From Candidatus Yanofskybacteria bacterium (GTDB taxonomy: Bacteria > Patescibacteriota > Minisyncoccia > 2-02-FULL-40-12 > IGHO2-12-FULL-4), in the NCBI GenBank assembly GCA_016185525.1, contig JACPNK010000002.1:75616-139615 (forward strand): a DNA stretch of 64,000 nt. The letters are read 5' to 3'. Made by a program: the position numbers and the translations under genes. The notes below the pieces were generated by a model. It was not told the origin of the DNA and ran no database searches. It worked only from the letters and a program-made list of their open reading frames with translations. Shown in pieces: positions 3,980 through 32,920 of the stretch. Position 1 is the first letter of the stretch; each line of letters opens with the position of its first letter.

Positions 3980-4513
3980 GTGAAAAGCACCGAAGTAATT
4001 GAGTATGAATACCCAAAAACGCCTTATTGGTTTGTCGCGAAAAAAGACTTAAATTCTCAACCTCAACAGACATTAGAGTTAGTTAAGCATACTCCGAAGG
4101 AACAACTTCTTGGCAGGGTTGAACATATGCAGAAAAATAATTTAACAGCAGTGCAAATTAACAGAATAAAAGATTTAAAATTCAAAACTATGTACTACTT
4201 CAAAGAATTAACGGAACGTTATTTCGGACTAAGCAGAGAACAAATTTTACAATTGCCTGACAAAGAGCTTGAGGTCTTATTTGCCTTGGTTTATAAACGA
4301 GCTCGGAGGGCTTCTGTCTATACAAAAATACAGTTGCTTCTTATACCAATTTTTGGCTGGATATTCTTAGCCTTTACCTATTACGAAGGAGAAAGAAGTT
4401 TCCCAGCAATACGTTTTATCAGTTCTTTGTGTAAAATTAAGAAAATAATGGGACATGAATTTAATCCAGTTGAAGCAATGCGCAACGACAAATTTTTAAA
4501 TCTTTCCATTTAA
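3980..4513 (+). CDS. hypothetical protein (177 aa), intact paralog of 2661..3108
   Basis: GTG start preceded by agaggtaaaaa RBS; shares QKNNLTA.Q... and C-terminal KIKKIMGHEFNPVE blocks with copy 1. Confidence 0.55.
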   Translation: MKSTEVIEYEYPKTPYWFVAKKDLNSQPQQTLELVKHTPKEQLLGRVEHMQKNNLTAVQINRIKDLKFKTMYYFKELTERYFGLSREQILQLPDKELEVLFALVYKRARRASVYTKIQLLLIPIFGWIFLAFTYYEGERSFPAIRFISSLCKIKKIMGHEFNPVEAMRNDKFLNLSI

Positions 4514-4600
4514 ATTATTATGCCCTCTTTGAGGGTTTTGTTTTTCGGCGCTCTTCAGGTCCTGTCAGTCCTGTCAGGATGACCCTGACAGGATGACTTT

Positions 4601-4634
4601 GGCCTTGGCAACTGCTAAGGCTTTTTGTTTTTTT
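4601..4634 (+). terminator. intrinsic terminator (gcctt-N10-aaggc plus T-run), preceded by second hairpin tcctgtcagg/cctgacagga
   Basis: Hairpin followed by TTTTTGTTTTTTT; immediately followed by duplicated promoter module. Confidence 0.5.
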
Positions 4635-4653
4635 GGTTTACTTTTGTTATTAT
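4625..4653 (+). promoter_or_regulatory. promoter TTGTTT-N17-TATTAT giving leaderless lysS mRNA
   Basis: -10 ends 7 nt before lysS ATG 4660; no SD. Confidence 0.45.
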
Positions 4654-4659
4654 TTCCTT

Positions 4660-6117
4660 ATGTCTTTGGAAGATATAAAACAGGTAAAACTGGAAAAGTT
4701 GGAACTGCTTAAGAAAGCTGGGGTTGACCCTTACCCGGCCAAGTCTTGGCGCACGCATGAAATTAAGCAGGCTCTGGAAAATTTTGAAAAACTTTCTGAA
4801 GAGAAAGAAAGGATAGTTTTGGTCGGTCGGGTTATGGCTAAGCGAGAACATGGAGCATCTGTGTTTTTGGATATTCAAGATACCAGTGCCCAAACTCAAG
4901 TTTATTTTAAAAAAGATGTCATTGGCGACTATGACTATGAGCTTTTTTCCAAAACCGTTGATATCGGAGATTTTATTGAGGTTTCCGGTTTTTTATTTAA
5001 AACAAAAAAAGAAGAAAAAACTTTGGAAGTTGAGAAGTATCGGATGCTGGCAAAGTCTTTTTTGCCTTTGCCGGAAAAATGGCACGGACTGCAAGATATT
5101 GAGGAGCGTTTCCGCAAAAGATATTTGGATTTGATTTTTAATCCCGAAGTCAAGGAAAAGTTTGAGATGCGCAGTAAGATAGTCCAAACTTTGCGGGATT
5201 TCATGGTTGGGAACGAATTTATGGAAGTGGTGACGCCGACACTACAGCCTCTCTATGGCGGGGCTTCGGCTCGGCCGTTTAAAACACATATGCACGACTT
5301 GGATATAGATCTGTATTTACGTATTGCGCCGGAGCTTTATCTCAAAAGGCTTTTGGTTGGCGGTTTTGAAAAAGTTTTTGAATTTACGACTAACTTTCGA
5401 AATGAGGGCATGGACCGGGACCACAATCCTGAATTTTCTGTGTTGGAATTTTATGCCGCTTACAAAGATTTGGATTGGCTGATGAATTTTACCGAAGAAA
5501 TTTTTGAAAATTTGCTGGTTCAGGTTTTCGGCCAGGTGAAAATAAAATATGAAGACAAAGAGATTGATTTTGCTCGGCCTTTTAAAAGAGCTAGATTCAA
5601 TGATTTGCTTAAGAAATATTGCGATCTTGATTACGAAACAAACAGCGAAGATGAATTTTGGAACAAAGCCGAGAAATTAAATGTTAAAATAGAAAAAAAA
5701 GTCGCTAAGCCGGGTTTGGCTGACGAACTGTTTAAAAAAGTTGTCAGGCCAAAATTGCTAGAGCCGATTTTTGTGACTGATTGGCCGGCTGATGTTCTGC
5801 CTTTGGCTAAGAAAATATACAATTCTGATTTCGTAAACGCTTTTCAATTTTTTGCGGGCGGGAACGAACTTATAAAAGCGTTTCAGGAGTTGAATGATCC
5901 TTTGGATCAGCGCGCAAGATTTGAAGTCCAAGAAAACAGACGGGCAAAGGGCGAAGAAGAAGCCCAAAGAATGGATGAAGACTTTATTGAAGCCCTAGAA
6001 TATGGCATGCCGCCGGCGGCCGGCTGGGGCTTGGGAATTGACCGTTTGATAGCCATGCTCACCGATTCCCATTCGGTCAGAGAAGTGATATTGTTTCCAC
6101 TGATGAAACCAAGATAA
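4660..6117 (+). CDS. lysS: lysine--tRNA ligase, class II
   Basis: Class II motifs FEFTTNFRNEGMDRDHNPEF, GGASARPF, EYGMPPAAGWGLGIDRL; table ORF starts at alternative TTG 4633 but ATG 4660 (MSLEDIKQ) is the likely start. Confidence 0.95.
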   Translation: MSLEDIKQVKLEKLELLKKAGVDPYPAKSWRTHEIKQALENFEKLSEEKERIVLVGRVMAKREHGASVFLDIQDTSAQTQVYFKKDVIGDYDYELFSKTVDIGDFIEVSGFLFKTKKEEKTLEVEKYRMLAKSFLPLPEKWHGLQDIEERFRKRYLDLIFNPEVKEKFEMRSKIVQTLRDFMVGNEFMEVVTPTLQPLYGGASARPFKTHMHDLDIDLYLRIAPELYLKRLLVGGFEKVFEFTTNFRNEGMDRDHNPEFSVLEFYAAYKDLDWLMNFTEEIFENLLVQVFGQVKIKYEDKEIDFARPFKRARFNDLLKKYCDLDYETNSEDEFWNKAEKLNVKIEKKVAKPGLADELFKKVVRPKLLEPIFVTDWPADVLPLAKKIYNSDFVNAFQFFAGGNELIKAFQELNDPLDQRARFEVQENRRAKGEEEAQRMDEDFIEALEYGMPPAAGWGLGIDRLIAMLTDSHSVREVILFPLMKPR

Positions 6118-22415: not shown

Positions 22416-24869
22416 ATGGTTTTTCTAATTTCCTCATTCATCGCTTTGGGCATAATCTTTATTGCCGGTCTTGTTGTCTTGGGCAGTTTTAAGACAAAAG
22501 GCAGGATGCAGAGGGCTTTGAATATGAGCCTCTTTTTGGTCAGAGTTCCCAGAGAAGTAAGTCCGCCAGCCGGCGGAGGCGGACAAAGGCCGGAGAAAGA
22601 ACTTATTTCAATTGCCGAACAAATGCTCTCCGGTTTTTCTAACATGCATTCCAAGGGTTGGAACAAGTTTTTGTACGGCGAACCTTATGTTTCTTTGGAG
22701 CTTGCCGTTCACCATGTTGGGGAGGAAACACATTTTTACATTGCCGTCCCAAAAAAGAACGAAGACACGATTGAAAAGCAAATTTACAGCTTTTATCCCA
22801 CAGCAGAAGTTACCAAAACAAACGACTACAATATTTTTAATCCGCAAGGCGCCAATGCCGGCACTTACCTTACCTACACCCAAAATGAAGTTCTTCCGGT
22901 GAAAACTTACCAGAAACTTGAAAGCGACCCGATTGGCGCAATTCTGACTTCAATGTCAAAGCTTGAAGCCGAAGGCGAGGGGGCTGCTTTACAAATTCTG
23001 GTCAGGCCGACCCATTCTTCAAACCTTAAATCACTGGGGGTAAAAATCGCGCGCGGTATGCAATCAGGGCAGACTTTTAAAGAGTCTTTGAACAAAACGC
23101 AAGAGTCTCAAGGACTAAGCAATTTGATAAAAACATTCGGCCCTTCTAAAAAAGAAGAACCGAAGCCGCAAGAACCGGAAAAGCCAAAAGTGGTAACTCC
23201 TGCAGACGAAGAAGTTATTAAATCTATCACAGCTAAATCAAGCAAGCAGAATTTTGACGTCAATATCCGCCTGGTAACCTCTGCTGTATCACAGGCAAGG
23301 GCGGAACAGATCCTACAGGAATTCCAAGGTTCTCTTGCGCAGTTTTCTGCTCCCGACCTCAATGCTCTCAAAGCGGTAAAACTCTCCGGCGGATCTTTGC
23401 AAAAGCTTTTGTATAATTTTTCTTTCCGGCTTTTTGACGATAAGCAGAAAATGGTTATGTCAACGGAAGAAATTATCAGTTTATACCATTTTCCGATTCA
23501 CAGCACCGCCGCGCCGAAAGTCAGATTTCTTAAATCAAAACTGGCGGAACCGCCGACTAATTTGCCCCAGCAGGGGATAGTAGTCGGCAAAAGTTCTTAC
23601 CGCGGGCAGGAGGTTTTGGTGCGAATGAGTGACGAAGACCGCCGCCGGCATATGTATGTCATCGGACAGACTGGCACCGGTAAGACGACTATTATGAAAG
23701 CTATGGTCAGACAGGATATTGAAAACGGCAAAGGCGTCTGTGTGATTGACCCCCACGGTGATTTTGCTGAATTTGCCCTTTCGGTTGTGCCTAAAGAACG
23801 GGCGGAAGATGTGATTTACTTTGACCCGGCCGATTTGGAGAGGCCTTTGGGTTTGAACATGCTGGAAATTGACCCGAGCCATCCGGAACAAAAAACTATG
23901 GTCATTGACGAACTTTTTGGTATTTTTGACAAACTTTATGACCTGAAAACTACCGGTGGACCGATGTTTGAAAAATACTTTAAAAATTCAGCTCTTTTGC
24001 TTTTGGACGACTATGCCAATCAAATTCCGGTGCTGGCGGACATTTCCAGAGTTTTGGTTGACGACGAATTCAGAACAGGCAAGCTTAGCCGTGAAACCAA
24101 TCCTTTAGTCAAAGAATTCTGGGAAAAGGAAGCCGAAAAAGCGGCGGGCGAATCTTCGCTTGCCAATATGGCGCCTTACATTTCTTCCAAGATTACGTCT
24201 TTTATCTTTAATGAATTTTTGCGGCCGATTATCAATCAGCCAAAAAGCTCTTTTAACTTCAGGGAAGCGATGGACAAGAAAAAAATCTTGGTCATCAATT
24301 TGTCTAAAGGGCGAATTGGTGAAATTAACGCCAGTCTTTTGGGTTTGATTATTGTCGGCAAGCTTTTGATGGCCGCTTTGTCTCGGGTTGATATGGACGA
24401 AAATCTGCGCAGCGACTTTTATCTCTATATGGATGAGTTTCATAATTTTACTACGCAAAGTATAGCCACTATTTTATCAGAAGCGCGCAAATACCGCCTG
24501 GATTTAATTTTAGCCCACCAATTTATTAAACAGCTTAAAGAGGAGATCCGAGACGCAGTGTTCGGCAACGTCGGCTCAATGGCGGTTTTTCGCATCAGCC
24601 CGGATGACGCAGAATTTATGAAAAATAAATTTGAGCCGGTGTTTTCGCCTCAAGACTTGATGAACATAGACAACCTGCACGCTTATGTTAACCTTTTGAT
24701 TAACGGTCAGACAGCCAGACCGTTTAACATCAAAATTGAAACCGAAAAAGTTTTCGGCGCGGGTTCTCCGGAGGTGGCAAAAGCAATCAAAGAAATTTCT
24801 CGCTTAAAGTACGGCCGGCCCAGAGAAGAAGTGGAGAAGGAAATCAGATCTAAATATGGCCAGAGCTAG
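22416..24869 (+). CDS. membrane-anchored P-loop ATPase, type IV coupling protein (VirD4/TraG/TrwB)-like
   Basis: N-terminal TM; Walker A RHMYVIGQTGTGKTT; DPHGD; Walker B YLYMDEFHNF; ARKYRLDLILAHQ; 817 aa. Confidence 0.6.
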   Translation: MVFLISSFIALGIIFIAGLVVLGSFKTKGRMQRALNMSLFLVRVPREVSPPAGGGGQRPEKELISIAEQMLSGFSNMHSKGWNKFLYGEPYVSLELAVHHVGEETHFYIAVPKKNEDTIEKQIYSFYPTAEVTKTNDYNIFNPQGANAGTYLTYTQNEVLPVKTYQKLESDPIGAILTSMSKLEAEGEGAALQILVRPTHSSNLKSLGVKIARGMQSGQTFKESLNKTQESQGLSNLIKTFGPSKKEEPKPQEPEKPKVVTPADEEVIKSITAKSSKQNFDVNIRLVTSAVSQARAEQILQEFQGSLAQFSAPDLNALKAVKLSGGSLQKLLYNFSFRLFDDKQKMVMSTEEIISLYHFPIHSTAAPKVRFLKSKLAEPPTNLPQQGIVVGKSSYRGQEVLVRMSDEDRRRHMYVIGQTGTGKTTIMKAMVRQDIENGKGVCVIDPHGDFAEFALSVVPKERAEDVIYFDPADLERPLGLNMLEIDPSHPEQKTMVIDELFGIFDKLYDLKTTGGPMFEKYFKNSALLLLDDYANQIPVLADISRVLVDDEFRTGKLSRETNPLVKEFWEKEAEKAAGESSLANMAPYISSKITSFIFNEFLRPIINQPKSSFNFREAMDKKKILVINLSKGRIGEINASLLGLIIVGKLLMAALSRVDMDENLRSDFYLYMDEFHNFTTQSIATILSEARKYRLDLILAHQFIKQLKEEIRDAVFGNVGSMAVFRISPDDAEFMKNKFEPVFSPQDLMNIDNLHAYVNLLINGQTARPFNIKIETEKVFGAGSPEVAKAIKEISRLKYGRPREEVEKEIRSKYGQS

Positions 24870-26593: not shown

Positions 26594-27754
26594 ATGTCTA
26601 ACATAATTCTTCTTGGCCTAACTTCTCTTTTTGCCGATTTTTCTTCGGAAATTATTATTCCTTTACTGCCGCTGTTTATAAATTCTCTGGGCGGCGCCGG
26701 TTTGGCGATAGGTTTGATTTCCGGAGTCGGCGATGCCGTAGCCGCAATTTTAAAAGTAACTTCCGGACGCTGGGCGGACAAAACTAAAACTTACAAAAAA
26801 TTTGTCATTTGGGGCTATGGTTTTTCTTCTTTAGCCAAATTTGTTTTTCCTCTGGCGGCGAGCTGGCAGCACGTTTTAGGAGCGAGAGCCGTGGAAAGAA
26901 TCGGTAAAGGCTTCCGCGACGCTCCAAGAGACGCCATTGTTTCCGAATCCTTGCCTCAAGAGAAAAGAGGCAGCGGTTTCGGTCTTCAGCGGGCGATGGA
27001 CAGTTTGGGAGCCATTCTCGGTTCTTTGACCGTTTTGTTTTTGGTTTGGAAATTTGACTTGAGTTTTAAACTGATTTTTCTTCTGGCGGCTTTTATCGGC
27101 TTGCTGTCGGTGGTTCCCGTCTTTTTCGTGAAAGAACCGAAAACTTTAAAAAGCCGCCAGCTTAAAAACCACCATAGTTTTTTTAAAATCAAACTCCCCA
27201 AAACTCTCAAGAGGTTTGTGATTATTTCAACTATTTTTTCTCTGGGAAATTTCAGTTTTATGTTCTTAATCTTGAGAACGCAGAACTTTTTGGGCAGTTC
27301 CAACTTTAAGGCCGGCTTAATCCTGACGCTCCTGCTTTATATATTTTTTAACATTTTTGATACTGTTTTTTCCCAGCCAGCGGGCAAACTGTCAGACAAA
27401 ATAGGCCGGAAAAAAGTTATTCTTGGCGCTTACATTTTTCTGTCTTTAACTTTTGCCGGTTTCCTTCTGGCAAAGTCTTTTTGGGTTTTTCTTTTTCTCT
27501 TTCCGATTTACGGCTTATTCAAAGCTTGCATAGACGCTTCTCAAAAATCTTTTGTTTCAGACCTGTCGCCAACTGAAATACGGGCAACGGCCCTAGGGCT
27601 GTTTGAGGCTTCCACTGGCTTGGCTTTAATCCCCGGAGGCATAATTGCCGGTTTGCTTTGGAACGCCAACCCGAATTTTCTTTTCGCTTACGGTTTGACA
27701 ATAAGCCTTTTGTCTTTCTTTTTACTCAAAAATATGGTAAAAATTAAGGTTTAG
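26594..27754 (+). CDS. MFS transporter
   Basis: 12 TM, GRWADK motif. Confidence 0.7.
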   Translation: MSNIILLGLTSLFADFSSEIIIPLLPLFINSLGGAGLAIGLISGVGDAVAAILKVTSGRWADKTKTYKKFVIWGYGFSSLAKFVFPLAASWQHVLGARAVERIGKGFRDAPRDAIVSESLPQEKRGSGFGLQRAMDSLGAILGSLTVLFLVWKFDLSFKLIFLLAAFIGLLSVVPVFFVKEPKTLKSRQLKNHHSFFKIKLPKTLKRFVIISTIFSLGNFSFMFLILRTQNFLGSSNFKAGLILTLLLYIFFNIFDTVFSQPAGKLSDKIGRKKVILGAYIFLSLTFAGFLLAKSFWVFLFLFPIYGLFKACIDASQKSFVSDLSPTEIRATALGLFEASTGLALIPGGIIAGLLWNANPNFLFAYGLTISLLSFFLLKNMVKIKV

Positions 27755-27756
27755 TT

Positions 27757-27827
27757 TGCCGGGTGGTGAAGCGGTATCACGCCTGCCTTTGAAGCAGGAA
27801 TCCTAGGTCCGACCCCTAGCCCGGCAG
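27757..27827 (+). tRNA. tRNA-Gln (anticodon UUG)
   Basis: Cloverleaf: acceptor UGCCGGG/CCCGGCA (U1:A72, G73 as in bacterial tRNA-Gln), D-stem GUGA/UCAC with GG in loop, anticodon stem CCUGC/GCAGG loop CUUUGAA, T-stem CUAGG/CCUAG; no encoded CCA. Confidence 0.8.
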
Positions 27828-27829
27828 CA

Positions 27830-28582
27830 ATGAAATTCCCAAAAGATTTTATAAATAAGATTGTCTGCGGTGATGTTTTAGATGTGATGAGGCAGATCCC
27901 GGACGGCTCTATTGATTTAGTAATTACTTCACCGCCGTATAATCTCAAGAACTCTACCGGCAATGGCATGAAAGACGGGCGCGGCGGTAAATGGGCGAAC
28001 GCCGCATTACAAAAAGGTTATTCTCATCATAACGATAATATGCCTCACGAAGAATATGTTAAGTGGCAAAAGGATTGTCTTACAGAAATGATGCGGATTA
28101 TTCCGGACCACGGCGCAATCTTTTATAACCACAAGAGACGCGTTCAGGACGGCATATTACAGGATCGCCAAGATATAGTGAGTGGTTTTCCGGTACGCCA
28201 AATTATAATTTGGAAGCGTAAGGGTGGGTTCAACTTTAATCCCGGTTATTTTCTTCCCATTCACGAAGTTATTTATCTTATCGCAAAGCCAAAGTTTCAA
28301 CTTGTCCCTAAAGCCAATGCCCATGGTGATGTCTGGGAATTTACGCAAGAAATGAAAAATAAACATCCGGCTGCTTTTCCGGTTGATTTAATTGACCGGA
28401 TTGTTTCATCTACTAATGCCCAAACTATTTTAGACCCCTTCATTGGCTCCGGTACTACGGCAATCTCCGCTATCAATTATAAAAGAAATTATATTGGGAT
28501 TGAGATTTCTCCCGAATACTGTAAAATGGCACAACAAAGGATTAAAGGCCATAAATCTCAAGACCCCTTTTTATTACAATGA
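27830..28582 (+). CDS. DNA methyltransferase, beta-class N4-cytosine/N6-adenine (N6_N4_Mtase family)
   Basis: Motif IV SPPY (LVITSPPYN) near N-terminus and motif I DPFIGSGTT near C-terminus; starts 3 nt after tRNA. Confidence 0.9.
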   Translation: MKFPKDFINKIVCGDVLDVMRQIPDGSIDLVITSPPYNLKNSTGNGMKDGRGGKWANAALQKGYSHHNDNMPHEEYVKWQKDCLTEMMRIIPDHGAIFYNHKRRVQDGILQDRQDIVSGFPVRQIIIWKRKGGFNFNPGYFLPIHEVIYLIAKPKFQLVPKANAHGDVWEFTQEMKNKHPAAFPVDLIDRIVSSTNAQTILDPFIGSGTTAISAINYKRNYIGIEISPEYCKMAQQRIKGHKSQDPFLLQ

Positions 28583-29376
28583 AAAAAGAACCAGTTATTT
28601 ATACAAAACCGGCGCTTATAAAAAAGCTCAAAGAAATTGCCGCTCTGGGTTGGATTAAGAATGCTCGTCATGGCAATCAGGGCGGTGTTGGAAATACTTT
28701 AGAAGATTTGCTTGGTATAGAGGAAAACAATTTACCGATTCCCAACGCGGCCGAATGGGAGCTAAAGACACAAAGATTAAATTCCGGCTCTTTGTGTACT
28801 CTTTTTCATATGGAGCCATCGCCAAGGGCTATTGGATTTGTTCCAAAAGTCCTTTTGCCTAAATATGGCTGGGCTCATCAGGAGGACGGTAAAAAATATG
28901 CTAAAGGAGAGCTAAGTTTCCGATTGACTATCCACGGTCTTTCTAGGAGCGATCGCGGATTCATGGTTAAGATAGACCGGGCGGAAAAAAGGGTATTAAT
29001 CTCCTTTAATTCTAAAAGTGTAGATGTGCGGCACAAGAAATGGCTTAAATCAGTTGAGAAGCGTATAGGGTTAGGCGAATTAAACCCGCAACCCTATTGG
29101 GGGTTTGACGATTTAGAGCATAAAGCCGGCACTAAACTACTAAATGCTTTTTATGTTCAGGCCGAAGTTAAAAAGATACGAGGCAAAGAATATTACAAAT
29201 ATAGTAAGGTTATGATGTTGCAGAAGTTTAGTTTTGAGGGATTTTTGAGGGCCATCGAGGAAGCGCGAATTCTTGTAGATTTTGATGCCCGCACCGGCCA
29301 TAATCACGGGACGAAATTTAGGGTAAGGGAAGATAGTTTGCCGATGTTATATCAGAAAATAACTACCATATTATGA
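28579..29376 (+). CDS. Type II restriction endonuclease, MvaI/BcnI family
   Basis: Collinear pattern matches with BcnI/MvaI as recalled (GGVGNTLEDLLGIEENN..AEWELKT..SLCTLFHMEP; C-terminal GHNHGTKFRV..LPMLYQKI); ATGA overlap with MTase. Confidence 0.7.
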   Translation: MKKEPVIYTKPALIKKLKEIAALGWIKNARHGNQGGVGNTLEDLLGIEENNLPIPNAAEWELKTQRLNSGSLCTLFHMEPSPRAIGFVPKVLLPKYGWAHQEDGKKYAKGELSFRLTIHGLSRSDRGFMVKIDRAEKRVLISFNSKSVDVRHKKWLKSVEKRIGLGELNPQPYWGFDDLEHKAGTKLLNAFYVQAEVKKIRGKEYYKYSKVMMLQKFSFEGFLRAIEEARILVDFDARTGHNHGTKFRVREDSLPMLYQKITTIL

Positions 29377-30104
29377 AAAACATAAAAGAATCCAAACCCT
29401 GGAAAGTTGGTAAAAAGGTGAACGACTTCTTACTTCACTGGATTGGTTTTGATTTAATCATCTTCTTCATTTTGGTTGTATTGAGTGCTATCTTTATTTA
29501 TTTTGATCCTCGGTCTGATTTTAATAAACTCGCCGTTTCTTTAATTCTTTTGACAACGGCATTATCACTTATTCAATATACCAAAGAGACACACAGGCTT
29601 AGGCTTTCAAATAAATGGCTCCTCGATAGCAACGATAAATCAAACAGTATAGCAGTAAGGCCGATACTTGCACCACGTTTTTTAGAGACAAATTACGGTA
29701 CTTCTAATTATATTTCGATTAATCTAAAGAATGTAGGAGGAGGGGTTGCGAAGAATATCCACTGGAGTATTAAATCAAATAAAGATTCAGATGTTCTGGC
29801 CGATAAAGATTTGTTTTGGAGGGATTTGAACAAAGACTTATTACCTAAACTTTGGCCTAACTTTGGGTATAGACTAACAATGTTCAAGAAAATGAATTAT
29901 GACAATCTGTGGAAATCCATTCTTGTCGTTAAGTATGATTGGGAATTTGGGAACAACGAAACTGAAACTTTTCCGTTAGACCTAGATTATTACACATCCT
30001 CTGACTTATCCGGAAATGTCTTGGAAATGTTGGACGATGTCTGGGTTCATGGAAAAATTAGAGAAATTGCAATTCAGCGCATTGAATCACAGTCAAAGGA
30101 ATAA
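29373..30104 (+). CDS. hypothetical protein with two N-terminal TM helices (243 aa), translationally coupled to REase
   Basis: ATGA overlap with REase stop; no recognisable domain. Confidence 0.55.
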   Translation: MKNIKESKPWKVGKKVNDFLLHWIGFDLIIFFILVVLSAIFIYFDPRSDFNKLAVSLILLTTALSLIQYTKETHRLRLSNKWLLDSNDKSNSIAVRPILAPRFLETNYGTSNYISINLKNVGGGVAKNIHWSIKSNKDSDVLADKDLFWRDLNKDLLPKLWPNFGYRLTMFKKMNYDNLWKSILVVKYDWEFGNNETETFPLDLDYYTSSDLSGNVLEMLDDVWVHGKIREIAIQRIESQSKE

Positions 30105-30127
30105 GGTAAGTTTATCTTTTATAAGAC

Positions 30128-30358
30128 ATGTATATATTTAAATTTGTCTATTCTAATCTAGGTCTTATCCTAAACACACTAGGTAGTATTTTAGTAGTTG
30201 TATCTATTGGTAAATTTCCAGATGGTTTTGGTGGATCAACGACAAGTAATAAAGGTAGAGAATATCACTTTGCCTATGTAACTAGACCAACGGGTTTGAG
30301 AGCAGGTCTCTTGTTAATAATTCTAGGGTTTATCCTACAGATATTAGAGAAATATTAA
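30128..30358 (+). CDS. small 2-TM membrane protein (76 aa)
   Basis: Two hydrophobic helices; 23 nt after previous gene. Confidence 0.4.
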   Translation: MYIFKFVYSNLGLILNTLGSILVVVSIGKFPDGFGGSTTSNKGREYHFAYVTRPTGLRAGLLLIILGFILQILEKY

Positions 30359-30461
30359 TGTTGTATTAAATAGTTTCTAATGTCAGTCAGTGCCCGGCAG
30401 CCATCCTTCGCCAAGGCTTCGGAATGGCTTTGGCAAAACTTATGAAAGCTACGAACGAGCT

Positions 30462-30566
30462 GACCACGACGGGTCAAGAATGAATACGCCACCCGGGTGG
30501 CGTATTGAGGAGAACGGTATTTGCATTGCCCTTCCGAAATCCGCCAAATGGCAGAAGAAGGAGGGA
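30462..30566 (+). repeat. GC-rich repeat copy A (85-nt identical core 30482-30566 with perfect 24-bp palindrome AATACGCCACCCGGGTGGCGTATT); candidate structured RNA/mobile element
   Basis: Identical to 32836-32920; degenerate similarity extends upstream to ~30400. Confidence 0.85.
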
Positions 30567-30632
30567 CACCTTTTCCGGACCAAAGGTCGAAGTCAGATTT
30601 ACGCAGGGTGTTTTAATTGATATACTAGGTCT

Positions 30633-30833
30633 ATGCAAAAAATAGCTACAAAAATTTTCGTCTGGGCGTCCGTCGCTTTCGCCATCATCGGAATGCTGAT
30701 GGTTTTAACCACCTCTCCCACAAGTAACGGTCCGAACGTTATTTTGTTAAAATTTCTGTTCGCGGCTATTATCGTTATTTTGACCTCATTTGCCTTAAGC
30801 ATTGCCGGCAAGTATCTAAACGGTAAGTTTTAG
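30633..30833 (+). CDS. small membrane protein (66 aa)
   Basis: Two TM helices; weak. Confidence 0.3.
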   Translation: MQKIATKIFVWASVAFAIIGMLMVLTTSPTSNGPNVILLKFLFAAIIVILTSFALSIAGKYLNGKF

Positions 30834-30971
30834 TTCTAATGTGGCCAAGGAAATTAAATTTGTATAATAAGTTATGCGCATAAACAAATTTTACAAACTA
30901 GTTATTTCAGTTGCGTTGGTCACCGGCGAGAGGCGCGGCATATTTTTCATAGAACAATATGTAAGAATATC

Positions 30972-31598
30972 ATGATAAAAGCATTGATTTTTGATGTTGG
31001 AGGCGTCTTATTTTTAGCTAAAAGCAGAAAAGAAAAAAACCTTTTGTCTTCGTTTAATGAAGCGTGTTTATTGCTGGAGAATTTTGGGATAGATGTGACA
31101 AGCTCTAAAGAAAAACTTACTGGTATTTATAAGAAATCTTCTGGGGGCGATATAACTAGAGAAGAAACACTAGCTCTTATGTCCACAGAGCTGGGAGTAA
31201 CGCAAACGCAGCTAGAAGAATATTTTAGAAGAGTTTATTCAGATAACTCAATAGAGAACAAAGAACTCTATGGCCATATATTAAAATTTAAAAAAGATGG
31301 ACTTAAGATTGGAATTTTATCTACTCAGTTTCATCTATCCAAAGATGTTTTGGTTCCAGCCAAATACTACGAAAACTTTGATGCTTTGGTAATATCATGT
31401 GACGATAAATTGAAAAAACCCGAAGAGAAATCTTTTATATTAATACTCCGGAGGTTGGGCGTAAAACCAGAAGAGACTATTTTTATAGACGATAAGCAAG
31501 AAAATTTGGATATCGCTGAAAAATTAGGAATGAAATCCGTCCTATTTAAAAACAACAAGCAATTTTTCTCTAAGCTAAAAAAGTTTGATATTGAATAA
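30972..31598 (+). CDS. HAD-superfamily hydrolase (subfamily IA-like)
   Basis: Motif I IFDVGGVLF, motif IV IFIDDKQENLD. Confidence 0.8.
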   Translation: MIKALIFDVGGVLFLAKSRKEKNLLSSFNEACLLLENFGIDVTSSKEKLTGIYKKSSGGDITREETLALMSTELGVTQTQLEEYFRRVYSDNSIENKELYGHILKFKKDGLKIGILSTQFHLSKDVLVPAKYYENFDALVISCDDKLKKPEEKSFILILRRLGVKPEETIFIDDKQENLDIAEKLGMKSVLFKNNKQFFSKLKKFDIE

Positions 31599-32815: not shown

Positions 32816-32920
32816 GACCACGACCTGTCAAAAACGAATACGCCACCCGGGTGGCGTATTGAGGAGAACGGTATTTGCATTGCCCTTCCGAAATCCGCCA
32901 AATGGCAGAAGAAGGAGGGA
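32816..32920 (+). repeat. GC-rich repeat copy B (85-nt core 32836-32920 identical to copy A)
   Basis: Direct repeat 2354 bp downstream of copy A; tails diverge but both contain ttttccggacc. Confidence 0.85.

Follow-up and report, generated by a model that had tools for sequence, protein, structure and literature searches.

We consider here a locus at positions 27757-30358 of a 64-kb window (by which we mean the whole stretch of DNA analysed) from a metagenome-assembled genome of Candidatus Yanofskybacteria, a lineage of the Candidate Phyla Radiation (CPR, Patescibacteria), in which genes for a DNA methyltransferase (M) and an MvaI/BcnI-family restriction endonuclease (R) are followed by the gene of a small membrane protein, ORF243. 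The restriction-modification (R-M) core of this locus is of a known kind; what is new is the undescribed family of the attached gene. This family, for which we define the name 2TM-QYTKET in this analysis, appears from its sequences to be an essentially CPR-restricted group of small inner-membrane proteins. Its genes habitually stand last, at the 3′ end, in operons for R-M systems or other defence nucleases; these operons are of many unrelated types, and they neither require the family gene nor are matched to it. With a confidence that stops somewhat short of even, we favour a reading in which ORF243 would be an autonomous, co-expressed and membrane-acting module of second-line defence, working by abortive infection or by exclusion.

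ORF243 is a real gene. Its product is 100% identical to the NCBI protein HYX21_00790 and has full-length relatives at 87, 77 and 75% identity. Its dN/dS of 0.15-0.24 indicates purifying selection, with nonsynonymous change 3-4 times faster than in R and M (0.05-0.06). The preliminary description of this locus had seen in it a protein with two transmembrane (TM) helices and of no recognisable family, and this remains a good description: two hydrophobic segments, TM1 (residues 24-44, Kyte-Doolittle values up to 3.45) and TM2 (residues 53-69, 2.44), are separated by an 8-residue loop (DPRSDFNK), and ORF243 alone gave no match to Pfam, NCBIfam or PADLOC profiles. A PDB sequence profile search found nothing. 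Net charge is +4 at the N-terminus, 0 in the inter-TM loop and +3 in the stretch after TM2, a distribution that suggests an N-in/C-in topology. In AlphaFold2 models, with mean predicted local distance difference test scores (pLDDT) of 79-85, a long helical hairpin (helices at residues 8-44 and 50-94) is followed by a seven-strand beta-sandwich (residues 99-201 in the models) of immunoglobulin (Ig)-like type, which carries an LKNxGxGxAxNI strand motif, and by a C-terminal helix.

The family signature consists of a basic N-terminal segment, two TM helices, the motif [QW]Y[TS]xE[TS]xxL[KR] after TM2 and a C-terminal domain of 120-165 residues. All of these elements are found in ORF243, and a hidden Markov model from a 61-member alignment recovers all the compared members at E 1e-47 to 1e-79. 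An exhaustive phmmer search yielded 13 representatives and a profile search 55 clusters. The source organisms, where named, are almost always CPR bacteria (Yanofsky-, Veblen-, Doudna- and Saccharibacteria, or 'Patescibacteria group'), and one member lies on a contig binned as Bacteroidota. Across the 61 members T62 (within TM2), Y69 and E72 are invariant and L59, T70, K71, T73 and L76 nearly so, the QYTKETxxL[KR] motif being situated where TM2 reaches the cytoplasmic face. Among the C-terminal domains at least four sequence types can be told apart, without detectable mutual similarity; they are shuffled relative to the N-terminal module, which is 60-85% identical between proteins whose C-terminal domains show no detectable similarity. 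The members at L017 and L039, for example, have N-terminal modules that are 81% identical and unrelated C-terminal domains; those at L012 and L024 are 85% identical in the N-terminal module and share a short, weak match in the C-terminal domain (32% identity over 60 residues). Judging from these comparisons, the TM module is the conserved part of the family and the cytoplasmic domain its variable, swappable part. The type of C-terminal domain does not track the type of the neighbouring R-M system: type D occurs beside C5 plus MvaI/BcnI, D12 plus HNH_2 and HSDR_N plus Eco57I, and type B beside N6_N4 plus HNH_2, Type ISP, SNase-HD and HTH-HSP20.

The genomic contexts of the family were compared in 13 independent neighbourhoods on metagenome contigs, a small sample. 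R-M genes lie upstream and on the same strand within three genes of the family member in 7 of the 13, and within five genes in 8. At the shorter distance a methyltransferase-containing system is present in the clade of the window and its two metagenomic relatives L001 and L002 (N4/N6 methyltransferase with MvaI/BcnI), at L010 (MvaI/BcnI endonuclease with LexA-S24-C5 methyltransferase), L012 (N6_N4 methyltransferases with HNH_2), L017 (HSDR_N with Eco57I/TaqI_C), L007 (Eco57I methyltransferase with T5orf172/ResIII, and Mrr and PD-(D/E)XK genes downstream), L008 (PLD-SNF2 with an MmeI-like enzyme) and L039 (a Type ISP enzyme). At L018 a D12 methyltransferase and HNH_2 occupy positions -5 and -4. 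The R-M neighbours are thus of eight different types, and two further contexts have other nuclease genes upstream (HNH, AAA_13 and GIY-YIG at L004; SNase and HD at L006). R-M genes are upstream in 8 contexts against downstream in 1, an asymmetry of 8:1. When the outer flanks of the same loci are used to set the base rate (~4% of genes, ~11% per three-gene stretch), 7 of 13 contexts against 11% corresponds to a binomial P of ~2e-4, a rough value in view of the small sample and the internal base rate. We consider the link between this family and the R-M systems of CPR bacteria to be suggestive in statistical terms and, as regards mechanism, unexplained.

An all-against-all BLAST of the ±5 neighbours across these contexts, looking for a conserved partner gene, matched just the methyltransferases and the endonuclease of the window clade. 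Genes for proteins of 300 (L008) and 306 residues (L039), by which the family member is separated from the Type IIG/ISP enzymes, were considered as a shared partner and rejected, as they are mutually unrelated. We also note at L010 (positions 4278-5912, minus strand) and at L011 a 544-residue fusion of a LexA DNA-binding domain, Peptidase_S24 and a C5 DNA methyltransferase, convergent with the MvaI/BcnI endonuclease, which may be a damage-responsive, self-cleaving methyltransferase or regulator.

In the window itself, reading of the DNA bore out the two gene overlaps reported before: a 4-nt ATGA at 28579 joins the M stop to the R start (...ttacaATGAaaaaag), and another at 29373 joins the R stop to the ORF243 start (...atattATGAaaaac). 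Because the identical R/ORF243 junction is kept in L001 and L002, it is not a chance overlap, and its geometry suggests that R and ORF243 would be co-translated. By blastn the window aligns to L001 at 85% DNA identity over precisely the stretch that begins at the start of M and ends at the stop of ORF243 (Table 1). L001 is another Yanofskybacteria genome, and the genes around its cassette differ from those of the window. M, R and ORF243 therefore appear to have been transferred as a single 2.27-kb unit. The idea that a membrane protein rides with the R-M system has in this respect proved sound and even broader than proposed, as M-R-ORF243 is a conserved unit and distant family members stand downstream of eight R-M types. 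The left edge of the inserted cassette is a tRNA-Gln gene, the end of which is separated by 1 nt from the M start codon, so that no room is left for a promoter of the cassette's own; its transcription may come by read-through from the tRNA-Gln, or the cassette may have been inserted precisely beside the tRNA gene. At L001 and L002 a tRNA-Ser gene lies just downstream of the cassette, instead of a tRNA-Gln before M. A scan of 27400-31100 for promoters and terminators gave counts no higher than in shuffled sequence.

Table 1. Features of the M-R-ORF243 locus, in window coordinates.
Feature	Position	Strand	Evidence
tRNA-Gln (UUG)	27757-27828	+	ARAGORN; Rfam RF00005, 59.7 bits
M, beta-class DNA methyltransferase, 250 aa	27830-28582	+	PF01555 (N6_N4_Mtase), E 1.8e-39
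R, MvaI/BcnI-family endonuclease, 265 aa	28579-29376	+	PF15515 (MvaI_BcnI), E 2.6e-63
ORF243, third cistron, 243 aa	29373-30104	+	ORF call, homologues, dN/dS
Predicted TM hairpin of ORF243	29442-29579	+	Hydropathy, charge counts; AlphaFold2 helices
QYTKET juxtamembrane motif of ORF243	29574-29591	+	Alignment of 61 family members
Predicted cytoplasmic 7-strand Ig-like beta-sandwich of ORF243, aa 95-201	29655-29975	+	AlphaFold2, pLDDT ~90
Predicted C-terminal amphipathic helix of ORF243, aa 214-242	30012-30098	+	AlphaFold2 models, pLDDT ~70
ORF76, two hydrophobic segments, 76 aa	30128-30358	+	ORF call, hydropathy
Conserved M-R-ORF243 cassette	27833-30105	+	blastn, window against L001

Taken as a pair, M and R form an ordinary R-M system of known kind. 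M matches the PADLOC profile MTase_II (PDLC03305, E 4e-115) besides PF01555, and has the motif order of the beta class, ITSPPY (motif IV, residues 33-38) preceding FIGSGTT (motif I, residues 204-210). The SPPY form of motif IV is typical of N4-cytosine methyltransferases, and M is expected to be of this type. It is the cognate methyltransferase of R, whose start its gene overlaps, and it is 91% identical in amino acid sequence to the L001 copy, with a dN/dS of 0.06. The match of R to PF15515 extends over profile positions 1-227 of 227 (214.5 bits, cut-off 25), and R is further matched by R.MvaI (2oa9, E 2.2e-17), R.BcnI (2odh, E 2.5e-5) and PADLOC REase_II (E 1e-82). By this family assignment R would be a MutH-like, monomeric Type IIP restriction endonuclease. 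Such an enzyme would be expected to act as a monomer on pseudopalindromes of CCNGG type, one strand at a time, of which the CCWGG depletion described below gives an indirect hint. Both enzyme assignments of the preliminary description, an SPPY beta-class N4C/N6A methyltransferase and an MvaI/BcnI-family endonuclease, are thus confirmed. As an aside, the single 513-position profile PDLC03305 is the best one for both M (positions 11-242) and R (256-508), which implies that fused single-chain M-R versions exist elsewhere.

The catalytic residues of MvaI are Glu36, Asp50, Glu55 and Lys57 (PMC1874612). In R, residues E42, E61 and K63 align with E36, E55 and K57 of MvaI, and Asn56 (window 28744-28746, inside PIPNAAEWELKT) aligns with the metal-bridging Asp50 and with the equivalent Asp of BcnI. 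Asn is present at this site in 120 of the 120 closest homologues, to all of which the motif PIPNAxEWELK is common, and the dN/dS of R (0.05) indicates strong purifying selection; we therefore regard Asn56 as a feature of the clade and not as decay. The clade is probably active, with a different arrangement of metal ligands; the substitution would reflect either such an arrangement, perhaps involving E59, or a catalysis unlike that of MvaI and BcnI. As for specificity, CCWGG is scarcer than expected in the 64-kb window (41 sites against 74.9±8.0 in shuffles), whereas CCSGG is at expectation (80 against 73.9), and this selective depletion points to an MvaI-like CC/WGG specificity; R thus probably recognises CCWGG. 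In contrast to the CCWGG depletion, some homologues of R carry the annotation 'NciI'. The characterised MvaI (CC/WGG) and BcnI/NciI (CC/SGG) Type IIP systems, with their N4-cytosine methyltransferases, resemble the present one in the full-length PF15515 match, the SPPY beta-class partner and the order of M then R, and differ from it in having Asp50 where R has Asn56 and in lacking the third, membrane-protein cistron that overlaps the R stop here. We know of no membrane-protein gene that is part of a characterised MvaI or BcnI system.

The two parts of the cassette also occur apart. The R clade comprises 6,837 clusters at E<1e-10, and ~80% identical copies are found in many CPR phyla, from which we conclude that the M-R core spreads horizontally; close relatives of ORF243 form 4 clusters. 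With a Giovannonibacteria locus the window aligns by blastn over M and R alone (27847-29362), and with L003 over ORF243 alone (29372-30091), where it stands downstream of an unrelated phosphatase gene with a promoter-like TTGACA-N17-TATATT upstream. Since the M-R core is found without ORF243 and ORF243 without the M-R core, ORF243 must be regarded as a passenger that can be separated from the R-M system, not as one of its subunits. The present trio, which moves as a unit, arose when the widespread core was joined to a module that also exists by itself. The notion of ORF243 as a component of MvaI/BcnI systems as such must accordingly be given up. Two findings had been named beforehand as fatal to the proposed association, absence of the gene from other MvaI/BcnI loci and membership in a housekeeping family; the former is true of most such loci, the latter is not the case, and co-occurrence with a second, independent MvaI/BcnI locus was found (L010). 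In the Giovannonibacteria loci L029-L038 (for example L029:4814-5458), a 74% DNA-identical M-R core is followed, after 16 nt, by the gene of an unrelated 214-residue protein.

The reading that we favour might then be put as follows. A Type IIP R-M operon, made up of the SPPY beta-class M and the monomeric MvaI/BcnI-family R, would have been acquired as a 2.27-kb cassette beside tRNA-Gln, and ORF243 would share the R-M transcript. Its variable cytoplasmic domain might sense an infection cue, and the conserved hairpin might serve as the output, either by oligomerisation and permeabilisation of the membrane, leading to abortive infection, or by blocking DNA entry at the membrane, leading to exclusion. 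The defence role of ORF243, its membrane-effector mechanism and every mechanistic step just listed are what we infer from the features described above. We think that a conflict or defence module fits better than a housekeeping or structural protein because the hairpin is conserved with invariant polar residues at its inner face, because the cytoplasmic domain diverges rapidly and recombines, and because the family resides in mobile, defence-rich neighbourhoods. One could go further and take 2TM-QYTKET as a new class of generic CPR 'restriction back-up' effectors, single-gene modules placed on the 3′ end of any R-M operon, although this extension strikes us as unlikely. The protein would then be translated in step with the nuclease, the beta-sandwich would recognise a phage product or a state in which restriction has failed or is overloaded, and the hairpin would collapse the membrane potential or close the route of DNA entry. 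In an alternative version 2TM-QYTKET proteins would tether restriction enzymes at the site of DNA uptake, where imported DNA would be cut for defence and also for nucleotide salvage in auxotrophic cells.

A number of observations weigh against a defence module of this kind. Both R-M genes and unknown membrane proteins abound in CPR genomes, and our base rate of R-M genes in CPR was taken solely from the flanks of the same loci. No defence gene was seen near the family member in 4 of the 13 contexts (L003, L015, L026 and L014). Searches of the 61 family members against Pfam, PADLOC and PHROGs returned chance-level matches alone (for example CARDB in two members, E 0.003), the PADLOC ones being two, in one member each, to a '4TM' effector model (E 0.0082) and to Cas10 (E 0.0091). 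Foldseek with the ORF243 model gave generic Ig-like sandwich or helix-plus-sandwich matches alone, with TM-scores of at most 0.46. No relative was found in the 2.9 million viral contigs searched, so that an origin as a prophage-type exclusion gene is unsupported. The 214-residue Giovannonibacteria protein, which has a hydrophobic segment at either end, N- and C-terminal, shows that the slot behind the endonuclease can be taken by another membrane protein; this could mean that defence-relevant membrane partners are common, or that membrane-protein genes are simply common neighbours.

Known systems offer partial parallels. The proteins Cap15/S-2TM-beta of CBASS, PycTM and SLATT resemble ORF243 in size (~200-250 residues) and in combining an N-terminal two-helix hairpin with a small cytoplasmic beta-rich domain. 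Membrane disruption is the proposed output of Cap15-, PycTM- and SLATT-type effectors. We rejected membership among the TM effectors of CBASS or Pycsar, Cap15 included, as there is no credible PADLOC or Pfam match in the 61 members and no cyclase in the 13 neighbourhoods, nor any other signal generator nearby, and likewise a SLATT pore-forming two-TM domain, as no SLATT family is among the Pfam matches of the 61 members at E<=0.01. No solved structure annotated as Cap15, SLATT or another defence effector was among the Foldseek matches listed. The arrangement in nucleotide-sensing effectors is also the reverse, in that the membrane module is conserved and the soluble domain variable in 2TM-QYTKET. 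An inward-rectifier channel of the KirBac type, suggested by fold matches, was rejected: such a channel has a pore helix and selectivity filter between TM1 and TM2, where ORF243 has a loop of only ~8 residues, and the Foldseek TM-scores are 0.25-0.31. The superinfection-exclusion proteins Sie, Imm and Ltp are, like ORF243, small membrane proteins of mobile, defence-rich regions that act alone. They differ in that the 2TM-QYTKET family has no PHROG match of note and no relatives in viral contigs, the latter being our reason for rejecting a phage origin, and in that the soluble domain of ORF243 is predicted to be cytoplasmic and not outside. LdgA and DdgA are Patescibacteria-restricted antiphage genes recovered by functional metagenomics, without homology to known proteins (PMC12366544). 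Their likeness to ORF243 is one of description only, in the restriction to Patescibacteria and the lack of known homology, and we take it solely as a lead.

Among the competing explanations the one that most deserves attention, though we hold it to be doubtful, is that ORF243 has no part in defence and is a lineage-specific CPR membrane protein of variable islands, concerned with host interaction, the envelope or maintenance of a mobile element. Adjacency to R-M genes would then come from sharing hypervariable, horizontally exchanged regions, and the ATGA junction from genome compaction. CPR genomes are indeed compact and 4-nt overlaps are common in them, the M/R overlap being one; tRNA genes flank the cassettes, mobile-element markers are seen in some contexts (a resolvase at L006, an AEP primase at L012), other contexts are without defence genes, elsewhere this M-R core has an unrelated membrane protein behind it, and the beta-sandwich fold is generic. 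However, same-strand R-M genes upstream-adjacent in 7-8 of 13 contexts and downstream in one are hard to obtain from island co-residence alone, the cassette homology stops exactly at the ORF243 stop, and conflict systems typically combine, as here, a conserved module with variable domains that are swapped. That either ORF243 or ORF76 is a spurious open reading frame can be given next to no weight: ORF76, it is true, falls beyond the conserved cassette and is without homologues in the compared loci, but for ORF243 the idea is refuted by full-length homologues at 75-87% identity, the dN/dS of 0.15-0.24, a family of 55 clusters and a confidently predicted fold.

We find it unlikely that ORF243 is an accessory specific to its R-M system. 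Such an accessory might be a guardian resembling PrrC-EcoprrI, silenced by the R-M complex and freed to damage the membrane once the enzyme is inhibited by an anti-restriction protein of a phage, or a tether that holds the nuclease at the membrane where foreign DNA enters, with nucleotide scavenging from imported DNA as a further possibility in CPR. A guardian serves as a second line of defence, triggered by the failure of restriction; the concept is established for PrrC and PARIS (PMC12707154). PrrC-EcoprrI, PARIS and RloC resemble the present case in that an extra gene, dispensable for restriction, is attached to or embedded in an R-M operon. The translational-coupling geometry kept in three genomes, the transfer of M, R and ORF243 as one cassette, the position of the family gene always downstream of R-M genes and on their strand, and the distant member beside a second, independent MvaI/BcnI endonuclease would all be expected of such an accessory. 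PrrC, however, is an anticodon nuclease of ABC-ATPase/HEPN make-up that resides in the cytoplasm and is bound to one Type Ic enzyme, whereas ORF243 is a membrane protein whose family accompanies eight R-M types and also occurs alone. Membership of ORF243 among guardians of the PrrC/RloC type was rejected, as no ABC-ATPase-like, HEPN, nuclease or NTPase domain is matched and the locus is Type II, not Type I. A specific protein partnership with eight unrelated enzyme architectures is improbable in itself, the C-terminal domain types are uncorrelated with R-M type, the family gene has no nearby R-M system at L003, L015 and L026, and the same endonuclease clade (>6,800 clusters, ~80% identical across CPR phyla) is almost always without ORF243. 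Less probable still, and to our minds quite improbable, is a regulator of the timing or toxicity of restriction, by which membrane-bound ORF243 would delay or dampen the endonuclease after entry into a new host, through sequestration of the nuclease or as an antitoxin-like partner. Its place directly after the endonuclease, the coupled translation that would tie its level to endonuclease synthesis and its travelling with the cassette agree with this purpose, which is that of the C-proteins. These known R-M control proteins, however, are small cytoplasmic helix-turn-helix (HTH) proteins, and ORF243 has no HTH or other DNA-binding domain; most copies of the successful endonuclease clade have spread without ORF243, and the family has links with R-M systems of many types, and with nucleases outside R-M as well.

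The surroundings of the cassette hold a few further features. ORF76, the second small two-TM protein of the preliminary description, is present as an open reading frame behind ORF243, beyond the end of the conserved cassette. The related loci compared contain no homologue of it, and we do not include it in the system. A 66-residue open reading frame, ORF66, also with two hydrophobic segments, is found at window positions 30633-30833, after the first copy of a direct repeat. Neither ORF76 nor ORF66, with no homologue in any compared locus, was retained as a partner of ORF243. The repeat is 105 nt long, with 96% identical copies at 30462-30566 and 32816-32920, both intergenic, each of which contains the perfect 24-nt palindrome AATACGCCACCCGGGTGGCGTATT. 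It is predicted to be structured (z = -2.8). A search of Rfam down to E<=1 returned nothing for it, and none of the other loci compared contains it; it may represent a small element, either mobile or regulatory in nature. Three kilobases upstream of the cassette, at 22416-24869, an 817-residue protein with an N-terminal TM segment and the Walker-A sequence GQTGTGKTT resembles coupling ATPases of the VirD4/TraD type and may mark a mobile region.

CPR bacteria account for a large share of bacterial diversity. CRISPR is mostly absent from them, and the defence systems identified so far are few (PMC12366544). If ORF243 is a mere hitchhiker, what is left is a Type II R-M cassette of the ordinary sort with the gene of an unknown membrane protein next to it. 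A CPR-restricted family that is unmatched in the profile libraries used and stands 3′ of eight R-M architectures is a candidate for a new function, either in defence or as an R-M accessory. ORF243 would be cheap to test, as it comprises 243 codons and could be used with or without the 1.5-kb M-R core, and the conserved membrane module with its swapped cytoplasmic domains offers a natural experiment on what the variable domain recognises.

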